Source: Bacteroidales bacterium (GTDB lineage: Bacteria; Bacteroidota; Bacteroidia; Bacteroidales; M50B96). From it: DNA of 64,000 bases. Shown here piece after piece: positions 54,339 to 60,006 of the stretch. The notes below the pieces were generated by a model that was not told where the DNA came from, ran no database searches, and saw only the letters and a list, made by a program, of their open reading frames with translations. Each line of letters opens with the position of its first letter. Position 1 is the first letter of the stretch. Location: NCBI GenBank assembly GCA_041584015.1, contig JBFHES010000001.1, positions 2,040 to 66,039 of the forward strand. The letters run 5' to 3'. Made by a program: the position numbers and the translations under genes.

Positions 54339-55034
54339 CTACTCTTCAATTGTTATTTCATCCTTTAAAAAAGTATAGCGGGCGTTAACCGCAGATCCCC
54401 TTTTAAATGCCGGATCGAATGAGCCAACACGATACCTGATTAACTCAACATAGGCATCCCACCCCTTCATGGTTACCGGAAAATTATTTTTATCAATCAC
54501 ATATGTTCCTTCATCAAGAATGGTACGCTGTAAACGTGTTGACCAATTTTCATGTGGAGTTGATCTTACATGCACTACAACCTCAATAGAGTCGAACTCT
54601 ACAGCCGGTTCCCATGTGATAGCTGTATTAGAGTTAAGATGCAACACATCCGGAATATTTGCATAATCAAAAGCTATAGGGGTAACAATTTCAGAAGTAT
54701 AAATTTCATCATTATTCAAGGTTACAGCCACCTGATAGCTTGTATCGGAATGCAGTGTAAACTGATTCTGCATTACATAAAATCGATTGTATTCATTCCA
54801 ACTTAGCGACACATCATTAATTTTCACATTACCGTCCTGCAGCACGCCAAACTCCCAATCATCATTTACAAAAGACACCTTCATAAGCTGTTCTGTTTGA
54901 ACACCAAAATATTTGTCAACGTCTACCCAAATTGAGAACTCTCCAGGAGATTCAACTACCGCTTTCTCATCATCAATGCAAGCAGAAAAGACGAGTAATA
55001 CACCTAATACAAATAGTAAATATTGCTTATTCAT
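54339..55034 (-). CDS. Hypothetical lipoprotein
   Basis: Signal peptide with lipobox (LVFSAC) and a beta-rich body. I recognise no motif. Confidence 0.55.
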   Translation of the reverse strand: MNKQYLLFVLGVLLVFSACIDDEKAVVESPGEFSIWVDVDKYFGVQTEQLMKVSFVNDDWEFGVLQDGNVKINDVSLSWNEYNRFYVMQNQFTLHSDTSYQVAVTLNNDEIYTSEIVTPIAFDYANIPDVLHLNSNTAITWEPAVEFDSIEVVVHVRSTPHENWSTRLQRTILDEGTYVIDKNNFPVTMKGWDAYVELIRYRVGSFDPAFKRGSAVNARYTFLKDEITIEE

Positions 55035-55082: not shown

Positions 55083-55111
55083 AAAAAACCTACTCGATGG
55101 AGTAGGTTTTT
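55083..55111 (-). terminator. Rho-independent terminator of paralog 1
   Basis: 7-bp stem cctactc / gagtagg with loop gatg, flanked by A6 and T5 runs. Confidence 0.7.
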
Positions 55112-55146: not shown

Positions 55147-56604
55147 CTATTTTAAAACCTTTTTTACGAATACTGTATTGTTGCCATTTTTAATTTGTAA
55201 GATATACATCCCTTTATGCAAATCACTTACATCAAAACTTATTAATGAATTCCCTTTTGGGCTTTCAATTAGATGGTCGACAAGCAAAACACCAAGTGTG
55301 TTATAGACCTGCACTCGATTTGTGCCTGAATAATTTTCAGGTAACTGAATATTTAACAGATCACCCATTGGGTTTGGGTAGGCATAGAATATTTTTTGAT
55401 CTCCCATTTCATCAGCAAGCTGAAGCAGCGCTGAAGTTACTTCAACAACCGCATACAGGTTTGTAGTTTCGGTTGTATACACCGATTTAGTTGCACAGTT
55501 TATCGCTAAACCCACATAGAATGTTCCGGGACTTGTTACCGTCGGATATGGAACTGCGGTTACAAAAACGTCATTGCTAATGCTAATAACCGTCCACTCA
55601 ATCATTAATTCTGATCCTGAGTAATACATATTTGAAACAAAAGCCGTATCGATGGTTGGATTCACTAAGCAGGTATCGATTAATGTAAATGCCGAGTCGG
55701 TAGGCATAGCTGAGCTTACTGTAATGATTGCCTCTCCCATTGTAACACATCCATTAACATCAGTAACAGTTACACCATACGTTGCCGGACATAATCCTGT
55801 TGCCAATGCCGTAGTTTGTGCATTTGGGTCGTCCCATTGATAGCTGTAAGGAGCGATACCACCTGTACCAAATGCTTCTACAGTGGCTTCGCACATAAAT
55901 GCTCCGGCTTCAGTAGCTAATACATTAACTGCTAAAGTATCCGGCTCAAAAACTGTAATTGTTAATGTATCAATCGCATTTAAGGCGTCTGTAACAGTTA
56001 GGTCGTACTCACCGGCTGCTAAGCCTGAGAGATCTTCCGTTGTTGCTGCATTCGACCACAAATAAGTATAAGGCGCCTGTCCATAAAGAACTGTCAAATC
56101 AATTGCACCATCGCTTAACCCTGCACAACTAACGGAATCAACAGTGAACACACAATTTGAATTTGCCTCCAGAGTGCTAACAACACCTAATTGGTTAGTC
56201 ATGTAGGTACTAATGCCCGGAGCAAAAGTCGCAATAGCCGGAATTACCTGTAAGGATGACGCATCCCAAATAAAAAAATTAAACGCTTCTCCATCATCAA
56301 AGCCATCCTTGGGGAGAGTTGATGAATCATCACCCCAAACGGAAAGTGCTGTGGTTGTGCCAAGAAACTCGACGTAACCACCACATTGCAACTCATTATT
56401 ATCATCATAATAAAAAGCTCCAATGTAATCACCACTCTCAATTGGGACACCATTTATTAGATAATCTGATGGATTGCCAATTAAGAGAGTGGTATTCCAA
56501 CCGGTAATTACATACGACCAGTTTGGTTGCGCCAAAACTCCATTTAAGCCAGACAATACCATCAATAATACCGATATCATAATAACAATGTAAGATTTTT
56601 TCAT
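55147..56604 (-). CDS. T9SS cargo protein, paralog 1 of a tandem triplet (unknown N-domain, two SprB-type repeats, type A C-terminal domain)
   Basis: Signal peptide ...GVLAQ and an N-domain with GDYIGAFYYDDNNELQCGGY and IWDAS. Repeats VSCAGLSDGAIDLTVLYGQAPYTYLWS and FMCEATVEAFGTGGIAPYSYQWDD. The C-terminal domain is YAYPNPMGDLLNIQLP...GMYILQIKN...VKKVLK. Confidence 0.85.
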   Translation of the reverse strand: MKKSYIVIMISVLLMVLSGLNGVLAQPNWSYVITGWNTTLLIGNPSDYLINGVPIESGDYIGAFYYDDNNELQCGGYVEFLGTTTALSVWGDDSSTLPKDGFDDGEAFNFFIWDASSLQVIPAIATFAPGISTYMTNQLGVVSTLEANSNCVFTVDSVSCAGLSDGAIDLTVLYGQAPYTYLWSNAATTEDLSGLAAGEYDLTVTDALNAIDTLTITVFEPDTLAVNVLATEAGAFMCEATVEAFGTGGIAPYSYQWDDPNAQTTALATGLCPATYGVTVTDVNGCVTMGEAIITVSSAMPTDSAFTLIDTCLVNPTIDTAFVSNMYYSGSELMIEWTVISISNDVFVTAVPYPTVTSPGTFYVGLAINCATKSVYTTETTNLYAVVEVTSALLQLADEMGDQKIFYAYPNPMGDLLNIQLPENYSGTNRVQVYNTLGVLLVDHLIESPKGNSLISFDVSDLHKGMYILQIKNGNNTVFVKKVLK

Positions 56605-56714
56605 ACCCTTAATATTTACGTTATACTTTAGTTAAGATACTTTAAAAGAAGAAACAGACACGACCACTTTGTCAGATATTAAAAATAACAAAACGGCTAT
56701 CCAAAGGTAATGAA

Positions 56715-56754
56715 TAAAAAAAATAGAAACCTACTCAAAAGAGTAAATTTCTAT
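56715..56754 (-). terminator. Rho-independent terminator of paralog 2
   Basis: Two-tier hairpin atagaaa..tactc-aaaa-gagta..tttctat. An A8 run on the plus strand gives the T-run on the minus strand. Confidence 0.6.
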
Positions 56755-56787
56755 TTTCGAACCATTGAATCTAGTTATAAAATTCGG

Positions 56788-58248
56788 CTATTTTAGAATC
56801 TTCTTTACAAATAAGTTTTCCTTAGAACCATTTACGCGCAAGATGTACATTCCTCTTTGTAAGTGACTCACATCGATAACAACCTGAGTTTCCTCCGAGT
56901 TATTCTTCACCTCCCGATCGATAACAATTGAACCTAAGGCATTATATACCCGCAATTGCAGCATTCCAGAGTTAATTTCCGGAATATTTACATGAAGAGT
57001 ATTACTAACCGGATTTGGATAAGCCAGGAACTCCTTGTTTGTTTCTAATTCAGTCATCACATCAAGCATCTGACTTGTAATTTCTACAATAGCAAATAGA
57101 TTTGTAGTTTCGGTGGTGTAAATACTTTTAGTAGCACAGTTAATTGCCAAACCAACATAAAATGTTCCAGGGGTTGAAACAGATGGATAAGGCACATCAA
57201 ACACCGATGTATCATTATTAACACTCACGATTGTCCAAACAATCGATAATCCAGTGGAAGTGTAAAATAAATTTGAAACATAGGCAGTATCTATTATTGG
57301 ATTTACCAAGCAAGTATCAATCAAAGTAAAAGCAGAATCAGTTGCAGCACTAGACCCTAATGAGATAATCGTTGAAGTATTTGCCAAACAGCCATTCGCA
57401 TCTGTAACTTCAACTTCATACGTACCCGGACATAACCCCGAGGCTAATGCTGTTGCTTGCGCATTAGGATCATCCCACAGGTAAGTATATGGAGTTGTGC
57501 CGCCAGCGCCAAAGGCTTCGGCAAGTGCTTCACACATAAAAGCGCCCGACTCATTTGCAAGTACATTCACCAACAATTCTGATGGCTCCGGTACAGCTAT
57601 TATTATTGTTTCTACAACACTCAGCGCGTCAGTAACAGTTACTGCATAACCACCAGCACTTAATCCGGAAATATCCTCTGTAGTTTCGGCTGTTGACCAC
57701 AGATAAGTATAAGGAGCAAGTCCATAAGTCGCTGTTAGATCAATTGCTCCATCACTTAAGCTCATGCAACTTACCGATGTAATATCATACAACAGAGCTG
57801 TATTAGCCCCAATAGAGCTCACAACATAAAGTCCATTAGTTATATAAGTTGTTCCGCTTGCTCCAGGTGTTATTACGGCAGTTGCCTCATGTTCTAAAGT
57901 AGTACTGGCATCCCAGATAACAAAATTAAACTGTTCTCCTGTAGCAAAGCCATTCTTAGGCATTCCTGATTCAGCTCCCCATGCAGTAATAGCCATGGTA
58001 ACACCTGTATATTCTGCATATCCACCGCATTGCAATACGCTGTTATCGTCGTAATAAAAAACGCCGATATAATCACCAACATCAATAGGCACTCCATTTA
58101 GGAAGTAATTTTGAGGCGTAAGTAAACCTAGCGTAGCGTTCACGCCTGTTATGCTATACGACCAGTTTGGCTGGGCATTTAAGCTGGCTAAAGCAGAAAA
58201 GGCTATAAAGCCACTAAGTAGAAGTAATCTCTTGTAAAAGTTGTTCAT
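56788..58248 (-). CDS. T9SS cargo protein, paralog 2 of the tandem triplet
   Basis: Same architecture as paralog 1. In a hand alignment of the N-domain (QPNWSY... to ...WG), 42 of 66 positions are identical. Confidence 0.85.
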   Translation of the reverse strand: MNNFYKRLLLLSGFIAFSALASLNAQPNWSYSITGVNATLGLLTPQNYFLNGVPIDVGDYIGVFYYDDNSVLQCGGYAEYTGVTMAITAWGAESGMPKNGFATGEQFNFVIWDASTTLEHEATAVITPGASGTTYITNGLYVVSSIGANTALLYDITSVSCMSLSDGAIDLTATYGLAPYTYLWSTAETTEDISGLSAGGYAVTVTDALSVVETIIIAVPEPSELLVNVLANESGAFMCEALAEAFGAGGTTPYTYLWDDPNAQATALASGLCPGTYEVEVTDANGCLANTSTIISLGSSAATDSAFTLIDTCLVNPIIDTAYVSNLFYTSTGLSIVWTIVSVNNDTSVFDVPYPSVSTPGTFYVGLAINCATKSIYTTETTNLFAIVEITSQMLDVMTELETNKEFLAYPNPVSNTLHVNIPEINSGMLQLRVYNALGSIVIDREVKNNSEETQVVIDVSHLQRGMYILRVNGSKENLFVKKILK

Positions 58249-58366
58249 AATTAAAATTTTAGTTTAGTTAATATGCCTTCACATCAATAGGAAGACAATA
58301 CGACCTTCCCATTGGTTGCTTAAAAACTCAATTATTTTTCGTGACATGGGTTTAACTTATCCTACC

Positions 58367-58435: not shown

Positions 58436-59899
58436 CTATTTTAATATCTTCTGCACAAACAAACTTTTAGTTTTATTTGAGACGCGAAGGATATACATAC
58501 CATCATATAAGTCGCTAACATCCAGTCCGACCCTTGTTTTGAGCCCCTCTGCCTGCACCTCTTTATCAATTACAACGGATCCGAGCGCATTAAACACTTG
58601 CACTCTCAATAAGCCAAGCTCTGCAGCCGGCAACTCCACATTGAGCAAATTACCAACTGGGTTCGGATAGGCATAAAATTCATTCGCTGTCGCAGATTCG
58701 TCAACCAAACCAAGTATCTGTGGAGTAATTTCAACGACGGCATATAATTGGGTTGTCTCAGTAGTATACATTGATTTAGTAGCACAGTTAATTGCTAGAC
58801 CAATATAGAAAGTACCAGGATTTGTAATACTTGGATATGGCATATCAAACACACCTGTATCAGCCGAAATACTAATTACCGTCCAAACAATCATTAAACC
58901 TGAAGCAGAATAATAAAGCTCCGAAACATAAGCAGTATCAATTACCGGATTAACCAAACAAGTATCAATTAATGTAAAAGCAGAATCAGTAGCTGCAGTA
59001 GAACCTACCGAAATAATGGCCGAAGCATTAGCGCTGCAGCCATTAGCATCTGACACATCAACCATATAAGTGCCAGGACAAAGATTTGTTGCTAAGCTTG
59101 TAGTTTGCAAATTAGGATCATCCCATTGATACACGTACGGATCTGTTCCTCCAGCACCAAAAGCTTCGGCCTGTGCTTCACACATAAATGCATTTGCCTC
59201 ATTGGCGAGTACATTAACAACTAAAGCAGCAGGCTCGGGTACGGTAAGCGAAAGTGTTTCTACAACATTTAAGGCATCGGTAACGGTAACAGAATAGCTA
59301 CCTGCAGCTAATCCAGATACATCTTCAGTTATTGCGCCATTAGACCACAAAAAGGAATATGGTGCCTGACCAAAGATGGCCATCAGATCAATTGCTCCAT
59401 CGCTCAGGCCATTACAGCTAACTGATGTAACATCGGTTAGCAGATTTGTATTAGCATACAGGCTTTCAACAATATAAACATGGTTTGTGACATAGCCTGT
59501 ACCGGAACCATTATTAACGAATGTTGCTACCGCGGGATATTCCTGAGAAGCAGACGCATCCCAAATAAAAAATTTAAATTCCTCTCCCGTATCAAAGCCG
59601 TTTTTTACCGGAGAATTCCATTCCCACCCCCGAGCTGGTATACTAGTAATAGCCCCTTGCCACTCAACATAGCCACCGCATTGCAACACATTGTTATCAT
59701 CATAATAAAATACACCTATATAGTCTCCACTCTCAATGGCCAGCTCATTAATATAACACTCCATCGTATCTAAAAGAATAATTGAGGCATTTGCGCCAGT
59801 ATTATAATACGTCCAATTTGGCTGTGCCTCTATATCTTTTGAACCTAGTAATGTTAGAAGAAGACCGGCGAGTAGAAGGGTTGAATAGAAGTTCTTCAT
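58436..59899 (-). CDS. T9SS cargo protein, paralog 3 of the tandem triplet
   Basis: The start is set at ATG 59899 (MKNFYSTLLLAGLLLTLLGSKDIEAQ), where the signal peptide begins. The track's 42-aa extension runs into the recO start. Architecture matches paralogs 1 and 2. Confidence 0.85.
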   Translation of the reverse strand: MKNFYSTLLLAGLLLTLLGSKDIEAQPNWTYYNTGANASIILLDTMECYINELAIESGDYIGVFYYDDNNVLQCGGYVEWQGAITSIPARGWEWNSPVKNGFDTGEEFKFFIWDASASQEYPAVATFVNNGSGTGYVTNHVYIVESLYANTNLLTDVTSVSCNGLSDGAIDLMAIFGQAPYSFLWSNGAITEDVSGLAAGSYSVTVTDALNVVETLSLTVPEPAALVVNVLANEANAFMCEAQAEAFGAGGTDPYVYQWDDPNLQTTSLATNLCPGTYMVDVSDANGCSANASAIISVGSTAATDSAFTLIDTCLVNPVIDTAYVSELYYSASGLMIVWTVISISADTGVFDMPYPSITNPGTFYIGLAINCATKSMYTTETTQLYAVVEITPQILGLVDESATANEFYAYPNPVGNLLNVELPAAELGLLRVQVFNALGSVVIDKEVQAEGLKTRVGLDVSDLYDGMYILRVSNKTKSLFVQKILK

Positions 59900-60006
59900 A
59901 GTTAAATCAATTTTAGTAGTGTAGTTAATATGCCTCAAATACAAAAAGAAGACAACCTTAAATTGTTTTTGGTTGCTTTTATAAAGCACAAATAATTTTA
60001 ACTGAG

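Follow-up and report, generated by a model that had tools for sequence, protein, structure and literature searches.

The 64,000-nucleotide window analyzed here (contig JBFHES010000001.1, positions 2,040 to 66,039 of the forward strand, GenBank assembly GCA_041584015.1, Bacteroidales bacterium) encodes three tandem paralogous proteins, each of which carries, directly after its signal peptide, one copy of a domain (the N-domain) that belongs to a family unnamed in Pfam, NCBIfam, and the Protein Data Bank (PDB). Our analysis, which works from sequence throughout, defines this domain as a module of ~125 amino acids (aa) and indicates that it is a mobile extracellular building block of Bacteroidota and allied phyla (Ignavibacteriota and Cloacimonadota). 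We read the module as an adhesion or ligand-binding head, with a putative ion site and variable loops, carried on SprB-type stalks, and consider the chances of this reading to be even. The family is new, while its kind, beta-sandwich modules of type IX secretion system (T9SS) surface proteins, is familiar and would not surprise a specialist.

The N-domain lies on the minus strand and comprises residues 26-151 of copy 1 (56152..56529), residues 26-151 of copy 2 (57796..58173), and residues 26-153 of copy 3 (59441..59824), with E-values of 5e-40, 1.7e-40, and 1.8e-38, respectively, against a family hidden Markov model (HMM). The HMM was built from 234 domain instances, one of which is the 90%-cluster representative of copy 2 (P0033) and the rest of which are from other proteins. 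When all six frames of the window are scanned, HMM positions 2-129 match exactly these three segments and nothing else, and chance does not explain the matches. Where copies stand in direct tandem in other proteins, their starts are separated by 120-139 aa, setting the length of the unit at ~125 aa. A preliminary description of this DNA had taken the domain to be ~100 aa long; the HMM and the tandem spacing correct this to ~126 aa, and the end coordinate given there leaves out the last two strands. The motif block that it had placed after the signal peptide, QPNW(S/T)Y .. GDYIG(A/V)FYYDDN..LQCGGY.E..G .. K(D/N)GF..GE.F.F.IWDAS, is present in all three paralogs, and alignment confirms one conserved Cys in all three copies.

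In domain numbering (position 1 is Ala25 of copy 1), the family signature is W..Y..TG.NH ... GDYIGVFY ... CGGY..W.G ... AWGDD..T..KDGF..GE.F.WKIW ... NG.S...L., and the signature residues W5, T10, G34-D35, G38, F40, C50, G52, G77-F78, E82, and N113 are present in all three copies. Conservation across the family reaches 97% for C50, 91% for D35, 90% for E82, and 87% for H14. The window copies contain a subgroup-specific invariant loop between strands b3 and b4, YYDDN..LQ, and, in copies 1, 2, and 3, respectively, replace H14 by T, A, and A, Y103 by F, I, and F, G114 by Q, G, and H, and S116 by G, Y, and Y; W86-K87 is replaced by F-F or F-V. Because the less strictly conserved residues H14, W86-K87, Y103, and S116 are replaced, the window copies are, as judged by sequence, a divergent subgroup of the module family. 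A second tandem triplet, in Bacteroidales metagenome-assembled genome (MAG) Tobar12.5m-G22 (L018, JAIOYV010000070.1, 5000-9098), encodes proteins of ~480 aa with the same four-domain architecture and 39-48% identity to the window proteins, and is preceded by a 1,161-aa protein with two module copies. The L018 copies keep the canonical set H14, W86-K87, Y103, G114, and S116, of which the window copies have lost H14, W86-K87, and S116. The window triplet is a minimal case of a widespread design, module plus SprB repeats plus C-terminal domain (CTD), and not a unique invention.

The domain, which the preliminary description knew from the triplet, is not special to it, as the size of the family shows. 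A HMMER scan of 1.84 billion cluster representatives with a profile of the three copies returned 2,574 proteins at E<=1e-3, of which 1,291 also pass E<=1e-10 and 190 pass E<=1e-30, with up to 15 module copies per protein and host proteins of up to 7,635 aa. A word-indexed search with the N-domain as a single sequence gave no matches, and the same search in profile form gave only 9 short fragments. In genomes, a scan of one genome per species with two peptide patterns, the counts of which are biased to close relatives, found 190 encoding stretches on contigs, from which 78 loci were kept. Of these, 65 belong to eight Bacteroidota MAGs, any one of which has at most 14; bins of Ignavibacteria, Melioribacteraceae, Cloacimonadota, Marinilabiliales, Lentimicrobiaceae, and Flavobacteriales contribute one locus each, as does a short contig assigned to an Anaerolineales bin. 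The family is strongly expanded in a few MAGs: JAIOYV, JAPLDU, CAYLZH, JANTGP, and JAYENH each hold 8-14 loci. All 78 loci (L001-L078) are from MAGs and none is from a named isolate, and a scan of viral contigs found no relative.

Structure prediction and coevolution agree on a small all-beta, sandwich-type domain, as the preliminary description had proposed. AlphaFold2 (AF2), given the three paralogs only, reaches a predicted local distance difference test score (pLDDT) of 69; given a 50-sequence alignment, its five models converge, and the best has a pLDDT of 95.1 and a predicted template modeling (TM) score of 0.88. The AF2 model contains eight strands, b1 to b8, at positions 13-18, 24-26, 36-42, 48-55, 61-67, 85-90, 95-103, and 115-123. 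Mean-field direct coupling analysis (DCA) of 711 non-identical instances yields antiparallel ladders b3-b4, b4-b5, b6-b7, and b7-b8, neighbor contacts b1-b5 and b1-b8, and core contacts of L16, V39, A65, and F84. In addition, DCA packs G51 and G52 on F78 and G77, places C50 on core residue F40 of strand b3, and brings an N-terminal arm, through W5 and Y7, into contact with Y36 and Y53, with Y36 in turn contacting W89. Because DCA packs C50 on F40 and G51/G52 on F78/G77, the nearly invariant Cys50 is most likely a buried core residue and not a reactive one. The single Cys, which had been offered as a clue to a small beta-sandwich binding module, thus looks buried, and the invariant residues listed in the preliminary description are mostly core residues of the whole family, so that they do not argue for a specific ligand site.

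A second group of coevolving residues is polar. DCA couples T10 with G67 and D76, N13 with W66 and N113, H14 with G114 and S116, G67 with E82, D68 with K75, and D69 with D76. These couplings join a second conserved set of residues into one contiguous cluster, polar and acidic, that is located at one pole and comprises T10, N13, H14, W66-G67, D68/D69, K75/D76, E82, N113-G114, and S116. Of 739 copies, 338 have D-D at positions 69 and 76, 110 have E-N, and 61 have D-E; the b5-b6 loop is either long (WGDD..T..KDGF) or short (WGxE.G..NGF). Because the carboxylates of D69 and D76 covary as a contacting pair beside a Glu that is 90% conserved, a bound cation is the simplest interpretation, and we infer a putative stabilizing cation, of Ca2+ type, held by D69, D76, and E82. 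The pole is a concrete candidate for a site of adhesion or ion binding, and the family is a reasonable target for structural studies and binding assays.

The host proteins are, by their type A CTD, T9SS cargo, as the preliminary description had proposed, and they carry SprB repeats. Of 237 proteins, 100 (~40%) begin with the module directly after the signal peptide; the module also occurs internally and as direct tandem arrays, the longest with 5 or 6 copies. The spacing between copies is quantized, at 120-139, ~190-230, 270-319, 330-379, and 430-450 aa, with the 120-139 aa peak, in which copies adjoin without a linker, accounting for ~100 of 532 spacings. These steps correspond, by length, to one module together with n SprB-type repeats, each of ~75-80 aa. 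Among 30 relatives scanned for partner domains, SprB is the commonest, accompanied by PKD, Ig_7, Laminin_G_3, cohesin, EGF_3, BNR, DUF4842, Por_Secre_tail, and one C10 peptidase with GEVED; no glycoside hydrolase was seen in these 30. The partner domains are, by family assignment, all of extracellular or adhesin type. The window proteins represent, in terms of predicted domains, the minimal form of this architecture: one unit of module plus two SprB repeats, a further domain, and a type A CTD. In many relatives, a weak, diverged module copy stands directly before the CTD (for example, P0012 834-942, P0031 610-717, and L003 634-742); 56 of 71 weak matches end <=130 aa from the C-terminus, and these copies apparently lack the N-terminal W5 arm.

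Taken as an adhesion or ligand-binding head, the module would function as follows. The three genes would produce proteins exported by Sec and then by the T9SS, each with one module at its mature N-terminus, where Gln26 would probably be cyclized to pyroglutamate. Most conserved residues build the fold: L16, V39, A65, and F84 as the core, C50-G51-G52 packed on G77-F78, and the W5/Y7 arm laid over Y36, Y53, and W89. A cation at the polar pole would stabilize this scaffold, and the neighboring loops b3-b4, b5-b6, and b7-b8, which vary in sequence and in length, would provide the binding surface. In the triplet, the module would be the portion most distant from the C-terminal attachment point, assuming that the proteins are anchored at the cell surface. 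The preliminary description had seen in the domain, as the membrane-distal tip, the probable ligand-recognition part; this idea receives partial support only, and the module is no special feature of protein tips, being N-terminal, internal, or tandem in thousands of proteins.

Several observations weigh against a binding head. Conservation in the module appears to be mostly structural, and a pure spacer domain would look alike. The strongest DCA coupling of all, H14-S116, combines His with Ser or Thr in 565 of 739 copies and is jointly replaced by M-A, M-L, A-Y, or A-F; because the joint replacements are hydrophobic, H14-S116 is, on coevolutionary grounds, a buried structural pair, atypical of a catalytic or ligand contact. 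The window copies replace the polar-cluster residues H14, S116, and G114, as well as W86-K87, and the role of the cluster may be altered in them. The direct tandem arrays, with as many as 5 or 6 copies (L016, L020, L029, and P0012), resemble repeats that build rods. Finally, cargo with a type A CTD can be released instead of anchored.

Some of these observations fit an exclusively structural role as well, and a spacer is the alternative that survives best: possible, in our estimate, if not probable. According to this explanation, the module extends or stiffens SprB-type filaments, as Ig, PKD, and Big repeats do, has no ligand of its own, and stands at the N-terminus of the triplet proteins only incidentally. 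The linker-less arrays and their spacing peak, the 5-6-copy proteins, the placement of conserved positions on core contacts, and the exchange of H14-S116 for hydrophobic pairs all fit a spacer. It is harder to reconcile with the gathering of so many conserved polar and acidic residues at one pole (T10, N13, H14, D69, D76, E82, N113, and S116), which would be unusual in a spacer, with the large share of proteins that start with the module, and with the triplet itself, in which divergence is faster in the N-domain than in the stalk-type SprB repeats. A Ca2+ site with a structural role would suit a spacer too, and to this extent the spacer and the binding head overlap.

A stronger form of the binding-head reading, that the module is the first member of a new family, at the level of the fold, of cation-dependent binding domains, comparable to lectins and carbohydrate-binding modules (CBMs), in which the polar pole sees a common ligand, strikes us as rather unlikely. 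If it were true, the giant multi-copy proteins would be high-avidity attachment organelles on SprB-type stalks, and the ligand would be one that many Bacteroidales, Ignavibacteria, and Cloacimonadota, uncultured and anaerobic, have in common.

Whether the module is instead a highly diverged member of a known CBM, lectin, or prealbumin-like family (transthyretin, CarboxypepD_reg, or starch-binding-like) that the tools missed depends on the searches of known families, and these make it quite unlikely. Against Pfam-A (24,736 models, 2025 copy; hmmscan, E<=1), the isolated N-domain matched 0 families, and no Pfam-A or NCBIfam family was shared, at E<=1, by any two of 50 diverse members. NCBIfam, including TANFOR (TIGR02542) and the choice-of-anchor domains, gave only single matches at chance level (E>=0.015), and profile searches of all PDB sequences gave nothing significant, with best E-values of 0.36-0.93. 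Foldseek searches of the PDB and BFVD returned nothing at E<=1e-3 and no TM-score of 0.5 or more, and the sub-threshold matches were generic sandwiches. The best PDB neighbors, transthyretins, an Ole e 1-like allergen, and a lipoxygenase (probability up to 0.91, TM-score 0.3-0.4, E>=0.014), are what speaks for a diverged known family, together with CarboxypepD_reg-like segments that occur in some of the same proteins at positions other than that of the module. Prealbumin- and transthyretin-like sandwiches do resemble the module in being all-beta and Greek-key-like and of similar size, but at these TM-scores, with E>=0.03 and a root-mean-square deviation of >10 Å, neither a shared fold nor homology is evidenced.

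No characterized CBM or lectin matched in sequence or fold in the PDB profile search or in Foldseek against the PDB; BACON and other CBMs were rejected for the same lack of a match, and literature searches found no description of the module. The preliminary description, which could assign the domain to no annotated family, is upheld by these searches, in which no confident match to a CBM, a lectin, or any other annotated domain appeared. Thousands of very large surface proteins of uncultured Bacteroidota and allied phyla consist to a considerable extent of this module, the stretches of which are blank in current annotation, and defining the family makes these proteins readable. For annotation, we supply boundaries of ~125 aa, a signature, a high-confidence model, and rules of architecture.

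A catalytic or covalent-chemistry domain, in which Cys50 would act with His14, Asp35, or Glu82 in a thioester-type adhesin or a small hydrolase, is very improbable. The conservation of C50, H14, D35, and E82 invites the idea, but C50 couples with core F40, and its neighbors G51 and G52 couple with F78 and G77; H14 couples with S116 and not with C50, gives way to M or A alongside hydrophobic partners, and is missing in all three window copies. Furthermore, the position preceding C50 shows no conservation, so that a thioester motif of CxxQ type or C-Q is absent, and no enzyme family was matched in Pfam or NCBIfam. We rejected a Cys-His-Asp triad and a thioester because coevolution puts Cys50 in the core and pairs His14 with Ser116.

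Least credible of all is an N-terminal delivery domain of Bacteroidetes polymorphic toxins, similar to TANFOR, which resembles the module in being a function-unassigned domain of similar size (~147 aa) at the N-terminus of large secreted Bacteroidetes proteins, with genes enriched for SprB- and CTD-containing neighbors (PMC7073777), but which is effectively refuted by the lack of any TIGR02542 match at E<=1 in the window proteins and the 50 members and by a different architecture: TANFOR is strictly N-terminal, single, and followed by toxin domains, whereas the module is often internal and repeated and is followed here by SprB repeats and a T9SS CTD, with no C-terminal toxin domain or immunity-like gene in the triplet and with housekeeping neighbors.

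The SprB repeat (PF13573) and BACON are the other known domains with which the module invites comparison. The SprB repeat, an Ig-like repeat known from T9SS gliding adhesins, occurs in the same proteins, follows the same export route, is likewise an all-beta repeat of giant surface proteins, and alternates with the module in regular super-repeats. The two are nevertheless distinct: PF13573 does not match the N-domain, and the module has its own signature and a length of ~125 aa versus ~75-80 aa for SprB. BACON (Bacteroidetes-Associated Carbohydrate-binding Often N-terminal; PF13004 / PF19190) is a Bacteroidota-restricted beta-sandwich of ~80 aa that often comes first after the signal peptide, is sometimes in tandem, and is suspected of binding; in all of these respects but length, it is like the module. 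It is typical of lipoproteins of polysaccharide utilization loci and not of T9SS or SprB proteins. No Pfam BACON match was found at E<=1, and no BACON structure is among the Foldseek PDB matches.

The three paralogs lie in tandem on the minus strand and are 56-58% identical end to end. Paralog 1 (55147..56604, 485 aa) consists of a signal peptide (56530..56604, residues 1-25, read from the sequence as ending in ...GVLA before QPNW), the N-domain, two SprB-type repeats (55717..56151, residues ~152-296; PF13573, best match 153-188), a middle domain (55411..55716, residues ~297-398), and a type A T9SS CTD (55150..55380, residues 409-485; PF18962 409-483 and TIGR04183 409-485). Paralog 2 (56788..58248, 486 aa) has the same architecture, and paralog 3 (58436..59899) comprises 487 aa from ATG 59899. 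On paralog 1, Pfam detects SprB at 3.8e-17 and Por_Secre_tail at 2.2e-15, and NCBIfam detects TIGR04183 at 5.9e-13; across all three paralogs, matches range from 2e-15 to 4e-17 for PF18962 and from 2e-14 to 6e-13 for TIGR04183. The repeat region of paralog 1 also matches SprB arrays of giant relatives in BLAST.

In all three paralogs, a hydrophobic leader ends in A immediately before QPNW. Inferred cleavage between A and Q, with Gln26 as the mature N-terminus, fits the Bacteroidetes Q-rule, under which Gln occupies the mature N-terminus after signal peptide cleavage (PMC5837995, PMC10653852). With a Sec signal peptide and a CTD, the host proteins are predicted to be exported as T9SS type A cargo. 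Identity between paralogs differs along the protein, being 17-29% in the signal peptide, 52-57% in the N-domain, 65-70% in the SprB region, and 38-53% in the CTD region, with the N-domain less conserved than either the SprB region or the middle domain.

Approximately 60 nt upstream of each ATG are conserved (56605-56670, 58249-58315, and 59900-59965, minus strand), with the leader sequence GTCTTCTT..TTG...AAGGCATATTAACTAAACTA, so that the unit of duplication took in a 5' leader or promoter region. The mechanical open reading frame (ORF) of paralog 3 runs to GTG 60025; the start is most likely ATG 59899, because the signal peptides align there and the 5' leader is conserved. Terminator-like hairpins with T-runs follow copy 2 (56719-56758, minus strand) and copy 1 (55084-55111, both strands). 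The conserved leader of each paralog and the hairpins after copies 2 and 1 suggest that the paralogs are separately transcribed duplicates.

The flanking genes encode RecO, Era, a SpoU methylase, a class II aldolase-like protein, an ADP-forming acyl-CoA synthetase-like protein, and a 231-aa lipoprotein; among them, no polysaccharide utilization locus and no T9SS machinery, toxin, or immunity gene adjoins the triplet. A functional tie to neighboring genes was rejected because the neighbors are all housekeeping. The 231-aa ORF (54339-55034, minus strand) lies directly downstream of the triplet, and its leader (…LLVFSAC) is of lipoprotein type; it matches no Pfam or NCBIfam family, and no homolog of it was seen beside the L018 triplet.

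The middle domain, which no Pfam or NCBIfam family matches, lies between the SprB repeats and the CTD, with equivalents in copies 2 and 3, and carries the motif TDSAFTLIDTCL..P.IDTA ... GT(F/Y)Y.GL.INC.TK. The possibility that it is a diverged N-domain copy was rejected (hhalign probability 0.4%). Within the set of sequences retrieved, only the L018 triplet and P0033 showed the middle domain, and at 67-72% identity, it is the best-conserved region of the paralogs.

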